A stretch of 35,583 bases of DNA from Nanobdellati archaeon (GTDB lineage Archaea > Nanobdellota > Nanobdellia > Woesearchaeales > JAADFO01): assembly GCA_013152815.1 (NCBI GenBank), contig JAADFO010000005.1:1-35583 (forward strand). The letters run 5' to 3'. The stretch's first letter is position 1, and each line of letters starts with the position of its first letter. Positions 12,001 to 24,000 of this stretch are shown piece after piece. A program made the position numbers.

Positions 12001-15000
12001 GCGATCGGATCATGGGTGAGAAGACCGGCAACCGTTCCTACACCGCCCTTCTCAGGAAAGGGCTCTTCACCCATTGGATCTGCGGCCACATCCATGAGAA
12101 CAACAACAAGAGCGAGACGCTCAAAGGGACACTGCTCCTCAATCCAGGCCCCAGAGGAAGGGTGCTCAGGATCTGACCGAGATATCCAAGATATGGTCTG
12201 TGCCGGGGGGTCATCTTCCCTATCGGTCTTCCCTGTTGGGAACGCTTCTTCCTGCGCAGAGGGCCGGAGTAAGATTTATATATGAACAGGGTTTTTTCAA
12301 CTTCCATGCCGGGCATGAACAGCAACTCGACCGTTCCCAAGCATATCGCCGTCATATTAGATGGGAACCGGCGGTTCTCGAGACGTCTCATGATGAAACC
12401 CTTCAAGGGCCATGAATGGGGTGCCCGTAAGATCCACGACCTCTTCGACTGGTGCAAGGAATATGCCATCAGGGAACTGACCCTCTATAGCTTCTCGGTG
12501 GAGAACTTCAACCGGCCGAAGAAGGAGTTCGATTACCTCATGGACCTCTTCAGGAAAGAGTTCGACGCGTTGAAGGACGACCCAAAGCTTGCTGCAGAAG
12601 GCATCCGCATCAATGTCATCGGCCGCCTGTGGATGTTCCCTCAGGATATCCAGGACCGGCTTCATGCCATCATGGAGCAGACCAGGATGAACAGGAACTA
12701 CATCGTCAATTTTGCCATGGCCTACGGAGGCCGCACCGAGGTCGTGGATGCGACCCGGAAGATTGCTGAACAGGTGAAGGCAGGGACCCTTGATATCAGT
12801 CAGATCAATGAGGAGACCTTCTCCAGAAATCTTTACACCGAGGATGAACCCGACCTCATCATACGCACCGGCGGTGAGAAAAGGACCTCGAATTTCCTGC
12901 CTTTCCAGGGAGCCTATGCAGAATGGATATTCCTCGAGAAGATGTGGCCTGAGTTCGGGAAGGATGATTTTGTCGCCTGTCTCAATGAATACGCCTTCAG
13001 GCATCGTCGTTTCGGCAGATAGCTTGCAGACAGTCAGATGCTCTTCCTGCCTGTTTCTTTCCGCTTCTTTCTTTTCTTCGTCGCCTTCTTCGCTACCTTT
13101 AAATAATTCTTGTTTTTCATCTTTGACATGAAAGCAACCGCACGCGCTTCATCGAACATCGCCTTCCTCAAGTACTGGGGAAAGAAGGATGCCCATCTGA
13201 ACCTTCCGCTCAACCCTTCCATCTCCATGACCCTTGATGAGACCGTCTCCACCCTGACGACCGTGGAGTTCGGCCTGGACATCAACCATGATGTGTTTAT
13301 CCTCAATGAAGAAGAGCAGACCGGAGAGAAGCTGATGCGTGTATCCGGGTTCCTTGACATCCTGCGGAAGCAGGCGAACACGATGATGAAGGCCATGGTG
13401 GTGTCTTTGAACACCTTTCCCACGGGGTCAGGCATGGCTTCATCTGCATCGGGGTTTGCCGCCCTGGCAGGCGCCGGCGCGAAGGCGTTGGACCTCTCCC
13501 TCGACCTTGATCAGCTCTCTTCATTGGCGCGGCTGGGGTCGGGTTCTGCATGCAGGTCGATCCATGGCGGCTTTGTGGAATGGCGGGATGACCATGCGGT
13601 CCAGCTCCATGACGAGCACCACTGGGACCATCTGCGCGACCTCATCATCATCACTTCAGAGGAAGAGAAGGCCATCAGCTCACGGGAGGCCATGAGCCTG
13701 ACCGTCGCGACATCGGCCCGTTTCCAGGACCGCATGACAAGGATCCTCCAACGTGCCGAGGCGATGAAAGAGGCCATCAGGAAGCGGGATTTCCAGCGTC
13801 TCGCGCCTCTCATCATGGAGGATTCCGATGATCTGCAGGCCTGCCTGAAGGATACCACGCCTTCCATCGACTATCTCAACAAGACCTCTGAACAGGTCAA
13901 GGGGCTCGTCCGAAGCCTCAATCAGGACGGCTTTGTGGCTGCCTACAGCTTCGATGCCGGACCCAATGCCCACATCATCTGCGACAGCCATGACCTCAAA
14001 GCGGTCCAGGAGGCGCTTCTGCCTCTGCAGGGAGTGAAGCGGGTCGTTGCAGGGGTCGGTCCAGGCATGCGCTATACCCGACATCATCTGATGTGACAAG
14101 AGTATCGATGCGGGCATCCTCTTTGAAGGATGAACACCTTTCTGCAATGGACAGAGAGCAGGAACAAGGGCAGTCAAGGGCAGTCAAGGGCAGTCAAGGG
14201 CAGTCAAGGGCAGTCAAGGGCAGTCAAGGGCAGTCAAGGGCAGTAAGGACAATCAATGGCAATCAGTGGCAAGGTGAATACGATGGACAGCCAGGGACAG
14301 GTGCAGGTGAAAGCGTTCGGCAAGGTGCTGGTCTTCGGAGGCTATGCCATCCTCGAGGAGGGCAACATCGGCCTGGTCGTCAACGTGGACAAAGGCACCG
14401 AAGTGACGGTCAGGGACAATCCCGAGGGCCGGTTCTCAGCAGCGATCCCTCAATATGACCTTCACACATCCGGTTCTTTTGAGGAAGGAAAACTCGTCCT
14501 GGACCAGGGTGACACGCGTCTCTCTTTCCTGGTCAATGCCGTGACCTATGCCCGGCAGTACCTTGAGGCCCAGCACGTCCCTTTCAGGGATGTCGGCATC
14601 ATCACCCGGAACGATGCAGAGCTCATAGGCAGCAAGGGAAAGAAGACCGGTCTTGGAAGCTCTGCCTCATCGACCGTCGCCATCGTCGCAGCGATCCTGA
14701 AGTTCCACGGCGTGGATGACCGTGACGTGGTCTACAAGATCTCCTGCTACAGCCATCACCTTACCCAGGACCGCTTCGGCAGCAACTATGATGTCTATGC
14801 CGCCTGCTACGGTTCCCATTTCTTCACCGGCTCGAAGATGAAACTTGATGAGCATTTCATGCGCTGCATCTCAGCGGGATGGAACATCAGCCGGGACAGC
14901 TATACCTGGCCCGAGGAGCTGCTGCCGGTGCTGGTCTTCACCGGCCATGTCGCGTCTACCCGGCATCTGGTGGAGAAGGTCCTTCAGTATCGGAAGAAGC

Positions 15001-21000: not shown

Positions 21001-24000
21001 CTCTTCGCAGGGCAACCTGAACGCTTCGCAGCATCGTTCTCCATCATGATGGCCAATGTCACCATGCTGCTCTCTCGCAAGGCCTTCCTGGTCTCTTCCT
21101 CTTCGCCAGGGCAGCGGCTTGCCATGCTCCAGCTGGTCAACAGGGCAGATGAGCTGCTCTATCATGGCCAGATGATGGACATGGCTGGCGAGCAGGAAGC
21201 GTCCCTCAGCAGGGAATGGTATCTTAAGATGATACAGAACAAGACAGGGACCCTGTTCGGGCTGGCGTTCCAGCTGGGAAGCCTCCTTGCAGGGAACGAT
21301 CAGGGCACCCAAGGAACCTATTGGCAGACCGGCATGGAACTGGCCCGCGGCTTCCAGATAAGAGACGACCTCAAGGATGTCAAAGGAACCAAGGGACGGA
21401 AGAAAGGGACCGACATCATCAAGAGGAAAAAGACGCTGCTCTTCATCGAGGCCATGGACAGGGCAGATAAGGGGCAACAGCAGGTTCTGAAGTCCATATT
21501 CTCCAAGCCCGCCGTGACTGACAGGCAGGTGAAAGAAGTCATTGCCATCATGGAGCAGACCGGCGCGGTCGAGGCGTGCAGAAGCATGGTCCGACGTTCT
21601 TTGACGGAGGCCCGTTCCCTGGTCGAAGATATCGCCTTCTCCCATGATGATCTCCTGAAATCATTTCTCTCACAGATGGTCGAGGATGCGTCATGAACGG
21701 CAGAGGAGACACCATGAGCAGGATACACCAGCGCAAGCAGAGCCATGTGGACGTGGCCCTGAACAAGGACATCTCTTATCATAGGTCTTCCGGGCTGGAG
21801 CGTTACGCCTTCATCCATAATGCGTTGCCTGACCTGGACTTTAAGGAGATCGATACCTCTGCTGTCTTCCTCGGGAAGAAGATACAGCTCCCGCTCATCA
21901 TCTCTGGCATGACCGGCGGCCATGCTCTGGGCGCCCGCATCAACAGGAACCTGGCCATGGCAGCAGAGAAGACGGGCATCGCCATGGGCATCGGTTCCCA
22001 GCGCATCGCCCTTGAACATGAAGATATGCATGATATGGTGAGCAGCTCCTTCGATGTCCGAAAATACGCTCCCAGCATACCGCTGCTCGCCAATCTTGGT
22101 GCGGCTCAGCTCAACAAGGGCTATGGCCTGAAGGAATGCAGGCAGGTCGTCGAGCAGATAAATGCCGATGCTCTGGTCTTCCATCTCAACCCTCTGCAGG
22201 AGGTCATCCAGGGAGGGGATGTGGACTGGAAGGGCATCCTTCCGAAGATAGGACGGATAGTCAAGGCGCTCGATGTGCCGGTGATCGTCAAGGAGGTCGG
22301 CTTCGGCATCTCGGACGAGGTCGGCCGTAGGCTGGATTCTGTCGGTGTCCATGCCATCGATGTCTCTGGCTCTGGTGGCACGTCCTGGGCTGCCATCGAG
22401 AGCAGGCAGGGAAGCATGCGGCGACGCATGTTAGGCAGAAGGTTCTGGGACTGGGGCATTCCCACCGCAGAGGCATTGCAGATGAACAAGGGGCGTAGGA
22501 CGAAGCTCATCGCAGGCGGCGGCATCCGGAGCGGCCAGGACATGGCGAAATCCATCGCGTTGGGTGCCGACTACTGCACCATGGCCTCCCCTTTTCTCAA
22601 GGCAGCTGCCGATTCTCCGCGAAAGGTCATGGAACTCATCCTGTTCCTGGAGCTCGAGCTCAGGACAGCCATGTTCGGCATAGGAGTAAAAGACCTGAAG
22701 ATGCTGAAAGGAACACCTTCCCTCCGCAGGCTCACTCCCTGAGAAGAAGGGTCATGGTCTCTCTATGGTTCTTCCTGGTCTCCCTGGTCATCCGCTCCCA
22801 GGCAGGATTCCAGCCATGACCGGTATGTCCTGTCCATCTCTTCTATCCTGACCGACTCTATGAGCGGGGTGGTGTAGCTGTGCAGCCTCTTTATGGCTGC
22901 TGCTATCCTGTCGTACTGTGCGGAGATGCTCTTGAGGATGAGCATGACCTCATCCTCGTCTTCCACCTTGCCCTCCCAGCGGTAGAGGCTTCTGATGGGC
23001 AGCAGGTTGGCGCAGCCGATGAGCCTATGGTCGAGGAGCGTCCTTGCCATGCGCTCTGCTTCCTGCTCGTCCTTGCAGGTCGTGATGATCATCACCGGCG
23101 TGTCCTTCTTCCTGTTCCCTTGTCCTGCGTCTCTTTCTATCGTGTCCTTCATTGGCGATCACCGACGAAGACGGTCTTTCCCTTCAGGGGAGCGATGCCG
23201 TCCTTCTTGGAGATGCTCAGGAGCTGGCTGAGCAGCCGTTCCAGCAGGGCAGGGGTCTCCTCCTTCACCCGGGCAGGGTCGAAGGGTGTATCAGGATGGT
23301 GAAGATACCCGATGCAGCTGATCCCTTTCTCGAACAGTCTCTCATAGCCTTCTCCTATGGTTCCTGCGATGGCGATGACCGGTTTTCCTCCTGCTGACTT
23401 TCCGAGGCCAGCGATGGCCTTGCCCATGGCCGACTGTCCATCGATCCTGCCTTCGCCGGTCAGGATAAGGTCTGCCTGCCCTATCTTCTCCTGCAGGTGG
23501 ATAAGTTTTGCGACCACGCCGAATCCTGGCTCGACCGTCGCATGGCAAAGGGCGAGCAGTCCGAAACCGACCCCTCCTGCAGCTCCTGCTCCTGGAACAT
23601 TCCTGTACTCTTCTTGGCAGTGTCGCTCCACGATGGTCGCGCAGTGTTCCAGCCAGCGCTCTAGGCGGTGCAGTGTCTCTTCATCCCCTCCTTTCTGCGG
23701 GCCATAGATGGCTGTCGCGCCGTTCTGGCCAAGAAGCGGATTGTCAACATCGCTCGCGATGATGATCTTTCTTCCCTCCAGTAGCCTGTCCGATGTCGTC
23801 GTATCGATGCTTCTCACTCTGGGAAGGTCTTCTGCAGCGAGGAAGCCGCCGTCGGGCGGCATGATGTCTTTCCCATCATCGTCCAGGAACCGCACTCCTA
23901 ACGCTTGAGCCATGCCTATGCCGCAATCATTGGTGGCAGAACCGCCGACACCGACATAGATCCTTTCCAGGCCCAGGTCTATTGCCGCCTTGATGAGCTG

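Follow-up and report, generated by a model that had tools for sequence, protein, structure and literature searches.

The ten adjacent genes in the window (a 35,583-nucleotide stretch from a member of the Woesearchaeales) encode the enzymes of the classical mevalonate route together with a cis-prenyltransferase, a short-chain prenyl synthase and a type 2 IPP isomerase (IDI2), and they probably (a likelihood of about 65%) constitute a self-contained line that starts at acetyl-CoA and ends at a glycan carrier of the polyprenyl (dolichol-type) phosphate kind, in a cell that would obtain its lipid from outside. Based upon enzyme identities assigned by sequence and the activities predicted from them, the thiolase, DUF35 scaffold and HMG-CoA synthase (HMGS) together with HMG-CoA reductase (HMGR) would produce mevalonate, which mevalonate kinase (MVK), phosphomevalonate kinase (PMK) and a diphosphate-type decarboxylase would convert into IPP. 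IDI2 and the trans-prenyl synthase would furnish a C15–C20 primer for elongation by the cis-prenyltransferase. Judging from gene neighbourhood, a geranylgeranyl reductase (GGR) family enzyme of the aglB run, encoded at another place in the genome, probably saturates the carrier, GT2 enzymes would load it and AglB would discharge the glycan onto surface proteins. Part of the FPP is probably diverted to squalene, and bulk glycerolipid, for which no known route is present, would most likely be obtained from a host or the environment and have its head groups changed by CarS, PssA and Psd. Below, G000 denotes the genome studied, other G-numbers denote Woesearchaeales genomes, f-numbers families and C-numbers contigs.

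Gene content of the mevalonate operon

All ten genes (Table 1) are intact, open and co-directional on the + strand (12282–22742), with neighbouring genes separated by -26 to 159 bases, and their profile matches bear out the complete operon described in the genome-wide survey's note. The thiolase, HMGS, HMGR and MVK of the classical pathway are all present and intact. Curated NCBIfam cut-offs were exceeded for uppS, mevDPdecarb, archaeal HMGS, MVK and IDI2, and the thiolase, which carries the catalytic motifs, scored above the cut-off of the thiolase-domain model NF004720, with an AcCoA C-acyltransferase-like best match (NF053570 score 519.9, cut-off 600). The DUF35 gene, which follows the thiolase gene in relatives too, is assigned by Pfam alone. 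A scan for sigma-70 promoters (the wrong promoter type for an archaeon) and terminators gave no excess over shuffled sequences.

Table 1. Coordinates of the operon genes and associated repeats within the window.
Feature	Position	Strand	Evidence
cis-Prenyltransferase (UppS family), catalytic	12282..13022	+	TIGR00055 237.5 bits vs cut-off 109.6
Diphosphomevalonate decarboxylase	13110..14096	+	TIGR01240 289.8 vs 171.4
Intergenic tandem repeat, 10-base unit x10.2	14165..14265	.	
Phosphomevalonate kinase (probable)	14256..15371	+	GHMP kinase
HMG-CoA synthase, archaeal type	15438..16565	+	TIGR00748 478 vs 353; Glu/Cys/His motifs
Intergenic tandem repeat, 9-base unit x6.7	16561..16620	.	
Acetoacetyl-CoA thiolase, archaeal type	16648..17802 (ORF call from 16405)	+	NF004720 544.9 vs 420
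DUF35 Zn-ribbon/OB-fold scaffold	17810..18220	+	PF01796, PF12172
HMG-CoA reductase class I	18195..19460 (ORF call from 18132)	+	PF00368 E 2e-110
Mevalonate kinase	19532..20551	+	TIGR00549 231 vs 163
Short-chain trans-prenyl diphosphate synthase (FPP/GGPP type, probable)	20548..21696	+	PF00348; two DDxxD motifs
Type 2 IPP isomerase (IDI2)	21693..22742	+	TIGR02151 381 vs 281

The UppS-family protein carries DGNRR, SVEN, RTSNF and C-terminal RRFG motifs, and its real start is probably at 12306 or 12318; that of the decarboxylase is probably the ATG at 13128. The thiolase ORF call begins upstream of the real start because the 9-base repeat extends the reading frame, and the HMGS bears a Ser-rich insertion. 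Three of the genes are more weakly supported. The reductase shows the DAMGMN and DKK motifs and scores 372 bits with TIGR00533, under the cut-off of 442. For the probable PMK, the top three NCBIfam matches are all PMK models below their cut-offs (best TIGR01220, 103 vs 166) and the closest solved structure is 3k17 (E 4e-27); its gene adjoins that of the decarboxylase in most relatives, and four f59 genomes have in its place a gene that scores as MVK. The trans-prenyl synthase falls beneath every equivalog cut-off and has a Tyr 5 residues ahead of the first DDxxD motif, a position read here according to the chain-length rule. Several relatives possess a type 1 isomerase instead of IDI2.

The assignment to the eukaryote/Sulfolobus-type route, also made in the earlier note, holds: the decarboxylase is of the diphosphate type and no isopentenyl phosphate kinase (IPK) was found in G000, where the only two AA_kinase matches were glutamate 5-kinase and UMP kinase. 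Against the model for the monophosphate enzyme (MvaD), the decarboxylase scored 140.8, far below the cut-off of 475. At the positions occupied by Asn and His in the monophosphate enzyme 6n0x it carries Lys25 and Met195; the structure 6n0z we take to be an engineered diphosphate-type variant. These residues, located at the diphosphate specificity sites, are present in 15/15 Woesearchaeales copies (for the Lys/His specificity rule, see PMC11052028). In a quick tree based upon 80 sequences, the best among more than 595 named relatives, with two near-identical rows dropped, 13 of these 15 clustered with Micrarchaeota and Thermoplasmata sequences (support 98), which indicates a grouping but no donor.

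Distribution of the ether-lipid core enzymes

The claimed absence of G1P dehydrogenase (G1PDH), GGGP synthase (GGGPS) and UbiA proteins from G000 was reproduced in repeat and additional profile searches. For PcrB (GGGPS) nothing scored above the cut-off (best E 0.39), UbiA gave 0 matches, Fe-ADH_2 gave 0 at E<=10, and the G1PDH model NF002022 and DGGGPS model NF009521 likewise gave 0. Local profiles built from Woesearchaeales relatives and run over 20,032 six-frame stretches of G000 recovered one barrel, which by its motif we take to be ribulose-phosphate-epimerase-like, and otherwise only low-complexity or pilus-assembly-like noise. Among 39 membrane-rich ORFs examined for the Asp-rich motif of a divergent UbiA, none was convincing. 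Searches of G000 for G1PDH, for GpsA and the acyltransferases PlsY and PlsC of the bacterial ester-lipid pathway, and for DAG kinase gave no match, so that no source of a glycerol phosphate backbone was found. The CarS-like, PssA-like, Psd, GGR-family and AglB genes listed earlier are all present.

It is exceedingly improbable that the ether-lipid genes simply lie in the missing 9% of the assembly, for example past the contig end near carS. The genome is 90.8% complete in 76 contigs, carS stops 140 bases short of the end of contig C59, and a single linked block would escape assembly about 9% of the time. However, HMGR is present in 27/401 Woesearchaeales (in agreement with the earlier count of 52 of 822), and not one of these 27 genomes, 22 of them near-complete, matches GGGPS or G1PDH, which makes the refutation by assembly gaps raised in the earlier note unlikely. 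Full-length GGGPS-like genes occur in 3/401 and G1PDH-like genes in 10/401 genomes, never both in one genome; a DGGGPS-like gene was seen in 1/27 HMGR-positive genomes (G087), and the recurrent neighbours of carS at 31 loci are head-group genes, with no core genes. Weak, partial PcrB matches (E 3e-7 or worse) in 52/401 genomes were attributed to phosphate-binding motifs of other TIM barrels, and classification was limited to the three full-length matches. Fe-ADH_2 matches were present in 12/27 HMGR-positive genomes, and the 10 classified (4 weaker ones were left out) consisted of 8 AroB and 2 iron alcohol dehydrogenases. These results support the absence of the ether-lipid core across the order, not merely from the assembly of G000.

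The possibility that the isoprenoids nonetheless enter the cell's own polar membrane lipids through a route so far unrecognised, with PssA and Psd performing the last steps after either prenyl transfer to glycerol phosphate by an enzyme other than PcrB or UbiA or direct CDP-activation of prenyl phosphate by the CarS-like enzyme, appears unlikely. CarS was detected in 43 of 80 genomes compared and is enriched with precursor synthesis (29/42 vs 14/38), a CDP-alcohol transferase adjoins it in 22/31 loci, and G396 and G279 encode a UbiA protein of no assigned type directly upstream of the trans-synthase, G279 having PlsY-like and GpsA-like genes in addition. However, G000 lacks a detectable backbone source, and CarS is without a match in 10/27 HMGR-positive genomes, including the single-contig G376. 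A cis-prenyltransferase homologue O-prenylates glycerol in vitro, but its authors judged this unlikely to be physiological (PMC8131916), and a second cis-prenyltransferase paralogue in the order, considered as an ether-forming enzyme, was rejected as such, its catalytic motif being lost in 21/21 copies examined. As for an archaeosortase using CarS, PssA and Psd, the sole sortase-like gene found was a bacterial-type exosortase on the 5-kb contig C32, accompanied by a PEP-CTERM-like gene and a CRP regulator; this contig is probably foreign.

The probable glycan-carrier branch and competing sinks

The carrier branch, comprising the trans-synthase, the cis-prenyltransferase, the GGR beside aglB and the GT2 and DUF2304 genes, is complete enough in G000 to be the main sink. 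A catalytic cis-prenyltransferase and an AglB with the WWDxG motif (WWDFG) are both present, as expected for archaeal dolichol phosphate synthesis and use. The GGR-family gene lies directly upstream of aglB, at the head of a GGR-aglB-GT2-DUF2304 run, and is more simply regarded as part of a glycosylation operon than as a lipid-remodelling gene, as it had been listed. Upstream placement on the same strand within <=4 kb was observed in 33/57 genomes having both genes, from 27 families, against about 0.1 genomes expected by chance; in G165 the gene for this GGR stands at the head of the mevalonate cluster, and in G376 and most of family f67 it lies apart from aglB. The protein retains GxGxxG, the conserved Cys and a PxxxW motif and scores low with DGGGPL reductase models (62 vs 580). 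Deletion of the Haloferax GGR abolishes dolichol phosphate saturation (PMC10821996); as that enzyme also reduces diether lipids (PMC10821996), the GGR could act on scavenged lipid. In G000, PF01148 (dolichol kinase) matches CarS only, and no DUF212/PAP2-type phosphatase for converting the diphosphate to the monophosphate carrier was found with the one seed used.

We compared 80 related genomes, which are not treated as independent: 27 HMGR-positive, 15 IspG-only and 38 with neither. HMGR and IspG are near-exclusive (both in 2/27), a pattern to be expected of two routes that serve a single need, and the mevalonate operon is kept in 12 families. A catalytic-type cis-prenyltransferase was detected in 26/27, 14/15 and 25/38 genomes of these groups, respectively, and AglB in 75/80. 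The cis-prenyltransferase gene opens the operon in G000; in G184 and G379 it neighbours the cluster, an adjacency seen in only 2/20 related regions. In the single-contig genome G376 (96% complete), the mevalonate cluster is accompanied by a cis-prenyltransferase, a GGR and AglB, and searches for PcrB, UbiA, Fe-ADH_2, CarS, PlsC, PlsY and SQS_PSY gave no match. Of 18 UbiA-matching proteins classified from HMGR-positive genomes, 8 are most like decaprenyl-phosphate phosphoribosyltransferase, which counts for the carrier as that enzyme uses it. The earlier proposal that the isoprenoids serve glycan carriers is favoured by the GGR-aglB linkage and the cis-prenyltransferase distribution, but CarS tracks precursor synthesis almost as well, so that the counts do not point specifically to the carrier. 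Co-occurrence of carrier and operon is also partly a genome-size effect (median 1.4 vs 1.15 Mb), and the operon is dispensable in the order, since GGR (21/38) and AglB (36/38), like the cis-prenyltransferase, are common in genomes without either precursor pathway.

The companion claim that the isoprenoids are not for membranes is too strong, as G000 encodes a squalene-synthase-like protein missing from the earlier account. This gene (C4:1935-3035) matches SQS_PSY (E 5e-42) and obtains its best score with squalene synthase (TIGR01559, 124 bits for a cut-off of 287); its product aligns with the trypanosome and human enzymes across both Asp-rich motifs. Squalene reduces the proton permeability of model archaeal membranes (PMC10821996), and the main sink could conceivably be squalene made from FPP that stiffens or seals a borrowed-lipid membrane, the carrier being minor. 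We regard this as improbable: the family cut-off is passed in only 4/80 genomes, 2 of them HMGR-positive, so squalene cannot explain retention of the operon in 12 families. The product could instead be phytoene or presqualene diphosphate, and contig C4, whose tetranucleotide profile ranks fifth of 53 for atypicality, with Halanaerobiales as named relatives, points to a recent gain or mis-binning.

The demand for carrier is small for a ten-gene pathway, the pyruvate dehydrogenase complex of G000 can supply acetyl-CoA, and retention of the cis-prenyltransferase in relatives without a precursor route implies cell-to-cell traffic in prenyl phosphates. Nevertheless, a role in symbiosis or redox balance, with prenyl diphosphates or mevalonate passed to a host or acetyl-CoA and NADPH from fermentation disposed of, is highly unlikely. 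The lower mevalonate route consumes three ATP per IPP, an unfavourable price for mere disposal, chain-building enzymes stand at the end of the operon, and profile searches of the cluster genes revealed no exporter.

The organism is small and probably host-dependent, and we infer that host lipid may be taken up and remodelled. A more tentative generalization, which we consider possible but doubtful, is that Woesearchaeales dropped membrane glycerolipid synthesis and keep a private glycan-carrier line fed, according to family, by mevalonate, MEP or scavenged prenyl phosphates, the aglB-linked GGR clade being a dedicated dolichol reductase, perhaps the missing enzyme that reduces the alpha-isoprene unit in archaea, and the cis-prenyltransferase paralogue that has lost its catalytic motif a partner subunit. 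If so, no ether lipids would confound the search for the missing archaeal dolichol steps, for which these archaea would offer the cleanest system.

Comparison with known systems

Castelle and Banfield reportedly mapped the MVA and MEP routes in DPANN in 2018. The literature describes a classical mevalonate pathway from a few Micrarchaeota as well as from "several DPANN MAGs" (PMC6107057, PMC11052028). G000 shares with it MVK, a probable PMK, the diphosphomevalonate decarboxylase and the lack of IPK, but its operon adds cis- and trans-prenyltransferases, has the archaeal thiolase/DUF35/HMGS set as its upper half, and belongs to a cell without the ether-lipid core; the available text does not name Woesearchaeales as a carrier of the route, and two genomes of this order were sampled (PMC11052028).

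Woesearchaeota that use MEP and lack GGGPS and DGGGPS (PMC8421398, PMC8204110) belong to the same order and also make precursors without the core, whereas G000 uses mevalonate; a glycan-carrier sink is not proposed in the available text of either paper. The operon corrects the statement that MEP alone is present in Woesearchaeota genomes (PMC8421398). Undinarchaeales combine mevalonate and GGPP synthesis with the lack of the genes from glycerone phosphate to archaetidylinositol phosphate, and external lipids were proposed (PMC7414124). They resemble G000 in having precursors without ether-lipid genes but differ in lineage and in their archaeal-type mevalonate route, and no carrier hypothesis appears in the part of that paper available. 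Hence, of the earlier idea that G000 separates the two uses of isoprenoids, the missing core stands, but the split itself is already known in DPANN (PMC8421398, PMC7414124).

Nanoarchaeum equitans and Ca. Nanohaloarchaeum antarcticus have hosts, lack ether-lipid synthesis and take up host lipids (10.1101/2023.12.06.570485, PMC7414124). They are described there without lipid genes, whereas G000, with a host only inferred, keeps precursor, carrier and head-group genes. The GGR-family flavoprotein of G000 resembles that of Haloferax volcanii in its probable link to carrier saturation (PMC10821996, PMC5088576), but its gene stands at the head of an aglB run, the cell does not make ether lipids by the known core enzymes, and the motif is PxFFxWxVP rather than PxxYxWxFP. 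The archaeal route to saturation of the dolichol alpha unit was described as unknown (PMC5088576).

Our literature search found neither this operon, nor its reading as a carrier line, nor the linkage of GGR with aglB described, though DPANN surveys or their supplements may already show Woesearchaeota mevalonate genes. All the enzymes belong to known families and the split has precedents, so that no new pathway is revealed; what seems new is the mevalonate operon in Woesearchaeales and the proposal that the reductase linked to aglB may saturate dolichol. The former offers an answer to the puzzle of why DPANN archaea make isoprenoid precursors without ether-lipid enzymes, and the latter provides a testable candidate for carrier saturation.

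The mevalonate operon and the route it encodes

The window is part of contig C5 of a 1.49-Mb genome (76 contigs, completeness 90.8%). As claimed in the genome-wide survey's note, it carries a ten-gene mevalonate operon, and all ten frames are open, co-directional and from known enzyme families, with intergenic gaps of -26 to 159 bases. The catalytic motifs are intact in the encoded proteins. Apart from a distant sugar kinase, no second copies of the ten genes were detected in this genome by tblastn. Contamination of C5 is disfavoured because archaeal ribosomal, Nop56 and fibrillarin genes share the contig. 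Two of three short tandem repeats in the window fall inside the operon. Elsewhere, the window encodes a secreted protein of 3002 aa that contains 369 cysteines and 21 N-glycosylation sequons; its sole recognised domain is carboxypeptidase-regulatory-like. The window also has a low-GC island (35-38% vs about 56%).

The same note's assignment to the classical (eukaryote/Sulfolobus-type) route is upheld by three results: the decarboxylase scores above the cut-off of TIGR01240 but below that of the monophosphate-type model, it possesses Lys25 and Met195 at two specificity sites, and isopentenyl phosphate kinase was not found in the genome. The closest solved relatives of the decarboxylase are 6n0x, described as the Anaerolinea monophosphate decarboxylase (PMC9254496), and the variant 6n0z; these differ at two sites (Asn/His vs Lys/Met), and the Lys/Met pair is present in 15/15 Woesearchaeales copies. 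Lys and His are given as markers of the two specificities in PMC11052028. In a quick tree, 13 of the 15 Woesearchaeales decarboxylases cluster with Micrarchaeota and Thermoplasmata sequences. The phosphomevalonate kinase step is inferred from the matches and gene position, because this GHMP kinase scores under every model cut-off.

Related regions were fetched from 20 of the 26 other genomes containing HMG-CoA reductase (HMGR). The decarboxylase, two GHMP kinases and the reductase occur together in 14 of these 20, the type 2 isomerase (IDI2) is often replaced by a type 1 enzyme, and a cis-prenyltransferase adjoins the cluster in only two. In four genomes of family f67, an endonuclease/exonuclease/phosphatase-family gene, possibly a prenyl-phosphate phosphatase, lies between the reductase and mevalonate kinase genes. 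Genome G140, which also has the MEP-route marker IspG, contains an acyl-CoA-ligase/carrier-domain/HMGR fusion amid desaturase, acyltransferase and DAG-kinase genes; the fusion may be foreign, or may not be an ordinary mevalonate gene.

Coordinates of features in the window and in fetched loci (L) of this and related genomes
Feature	Location	Strand	Remarks
Mevalonate operon	window 12282-22742		cis-prenyltransferase, diphosphomevalonate decarboxylase, probable phosphomevalonate kinase, archaeal-type HMG-CoA synthase, thiolase, DUF35, class I HMGR, mevalonate kinase, trans-prenyl synthase, type 2 isomerase
Tandem repeats	window 14165-14265, 16561-16620, 6763-6808		10-, 9- and 12-base units; between genes or at gene ends
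Secreted protein	window 26237-35245	-
Low-GC island	window 4001-6000
ORF in island	window 4524-5651	+	375 aa, no clear family
GGR-family gene, then aglB, GT2, DUF2304	L100:14929-16128 and 11228-14854 (contig C24)		GGR directly upstream of aglB; GGR at C24:24928-26046, - strand
ADP-heptose genes, heptosyltransferase	L100:1707-5848 (C24)		GmhA, HldE, GmhB
Squalene-synthase-like gene	L184:1935-3035 (contig C4)		rare in order; contig compositionally atypical
Cis-prenyltransferase-fold paralogue	L185:5712-6521 (contig C73)		without DGNxR motif or C-terminal RxG; back to back with prepilin peptidase
Phosphatase-family insert	L073:5337-6107, L079:8756-9505, L080:10651-11349, L081:5049-5777		four f67 genomes
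HMGR fusion	L078:9438-12542 (G140)
UbiA-family gene, trans-prenyl synthase	L043:1444-3461 (G396), L046:1438-3501 (G279)		both f59

Absence of the ether-lipid core

The reported lack of G1PDH, GGGPS and UbiA is confirmed for this genome, in which no match was obtained to PcrB, UbiA, Fe-ADH_2, the G1PDH and DGGGPS models or local profiles built from relatives. The note had cautioned that the genes might lie in assembly gaps. Against this, across 401 genomes of the order, each at least 75% complete, HMGR is present in 27 (12 families), and none of these 27 has a GGGPS-like or G1PDH-like gene; one (G087) has a DGGGPS-like gene. Full-length GGGPS-like genes were detected in 3/401 genomes and G1PDH-like genes in 10/401, all below equivalog cut-offs and never both in one genome. 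Two of the 401 (G202, G204), flagged unpublished, were used only in these denominators and for weak PcrB matches. The absence is thus real at the order level. The GGGPS-like genes of L031-L033 (G218, G160, G225) and a strong G1PDH-like gene of L195 (G077) occur with the rest of the core absent. GpsA, PlsY and PlsC of the bacterial ester-lipid route were not found in this genome; elsewhere, GpsA occurs in G022, and genes resembling GpsA and PlsY in G279.

Uses of the isoprenoids

A geranylgeranyl-reductase-family (GGR) gene, whose named relatives carry the label Woesearchaeota, precedes aglB in this genome; the order name Woesearchaeales is taken over from the survey's note. The GGR scores 171 for TIGR02032 (cut-off 159), and its closest solved relative is the Thermoplasma DGGGPL reductase 3oz2 (E 1.5e-19). 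The GT2 that follows aglB is most like polyprenyl-phospho-sugar synthases. ADP-heptose and heptosyltransferase genes lie a few kb downstream of this aglB run.

Co-occurrence was surveyed, with no correction for relatedness, in 80 genomes: the 27 with HMGR and 53 more, roughly one from each family. AglB was matched in 75 and GGR in 58; among the 57 with both, GGR lies within 4 kb upstream of aglB on the same strand in 33 (27 families; about 0.1 such genomes would arise by chance), and the two are on separate contigs in 16. In G165, GGR heads the mevalonate cluster itself. Catalytic-type cis-prenyltransferases (E below 1e-46) are present in 26/27 HMGR-positive genomes, 14/15 with IspG only and 25/38 with neither route; HMGR and IspG co-occur in 2/27. 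In the single-contig genome G376, which combines the cluster with cis-prenyltransferase, GGR and AglB, none of the glycerolipid genes looked for, among them CarS, gave a match; the carrier is the sole isoprenoid sink identified in that genome.

Several observations weigh against a carrier role. Carrier genes are common even in those genomes of this set that have no precursor route, genomes with such a route are the larger ones (median 1.4 vs 1.15 Mb), CarS is also enriched with precursor synthesis (29/42 vs 14/38), and no enzyme for converting the carrier diphosphate to the monophosphate was found in this genome. The squalene-synthase-like protein, with named relatives from Halanaerobiales and matches over cut-off in 4/80 genomes, may represent a membrane use of isoprenoid. 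In two f59 genomes an unassigned UbiA-family prenyltransferase, preceded by an uncharacterised protein, lies directly upstream of the trans-prenyl synthase, and therefore other prenyl acceptors are indicated in some lineages. The survey's note had proposed that isoprenoids serve glycan carriers and not membranes. Its first part is the more probable reading, supported by the GGR-aglB linkage, the cis-prenyltransferase co-occurrence and G376, whereas the exclusion of membranes is weakened by the squalene-synthase-like gene. Host-lipid uptake is inferred from the absent genes and by analogy with other DPANN systems. Most probably (about 0.65), the operon provides the precursors of a dolichol-type glycan carrier, squalene being an additional product in this genome.

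A second cis-prenyltransferase-fold protein, apparently catalytically dead, is conserved across the order: the DGN motif is absent from 21/21 such paralogues examined (DGNRR is present in 19/19 partners), and a prepilin peptidase is adjacent in 16/21 loci. The complex modelled between this genome's paralogue and the window enzyme scored 0.86 (best control 0.00; the mark is reached by 116/157 solved and 2/215 mismatched pairs), with contacts agreeing in at least 96% between runs and partner pLDDT of at least 84. Because cis-prenyltransferase dimers have been solved many times over, this modelled score indicates likeness, not binding. The 5-kb contig C32 (L345), with a bacterial-type exosortase, a PEP-CTERM-like gene and a CRP regulator, is probably foreign to the bin.

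Comparison with published work

Literature searches, which did not extend to a Cell review of 2018 or to a number of supplements, turned up no description of the operon or of the linkage between GGR and aglB. Published studies place the classical route in a part of the Micrarchaeota and in DPANN genomes that are not named (PMC6107057, PMC11052028), and mevalonate in four other DPANN phyla (PMC8407392). Two Woesearchaeales genomes are listed in the table of PMC11052028; an MEP cluster is described in PMC8204110. They also report that Haloferax GGR acts on dolichol phosphate, the archaeal alpha-reducing enzyme being unknown in 2016 (PMC10821996, PMC5088576, PMC11407970), and that a Micrarchaeon with host-like lipids has an incomplete set (PMC8975820). 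The Woesearchaeota of PMC8421398 are reported likewise to lack GGGPS and DGGGPS, but have MEP only, in contrast to the mevalonate route here. The operon is thus genuine and conserved, consists of known enzymes and belongs to a lineage without the ether-lipid core. It is of value for the pattern seen across the order and for offering a candidate dolichol reductase that can be tested. The split of precursor synthesis from the ether-lipid core has precedents and is not a new kind of system; Undinarchaeales are similarly reported to possess mevalonate without ether-lipid genes (PMC7414124).
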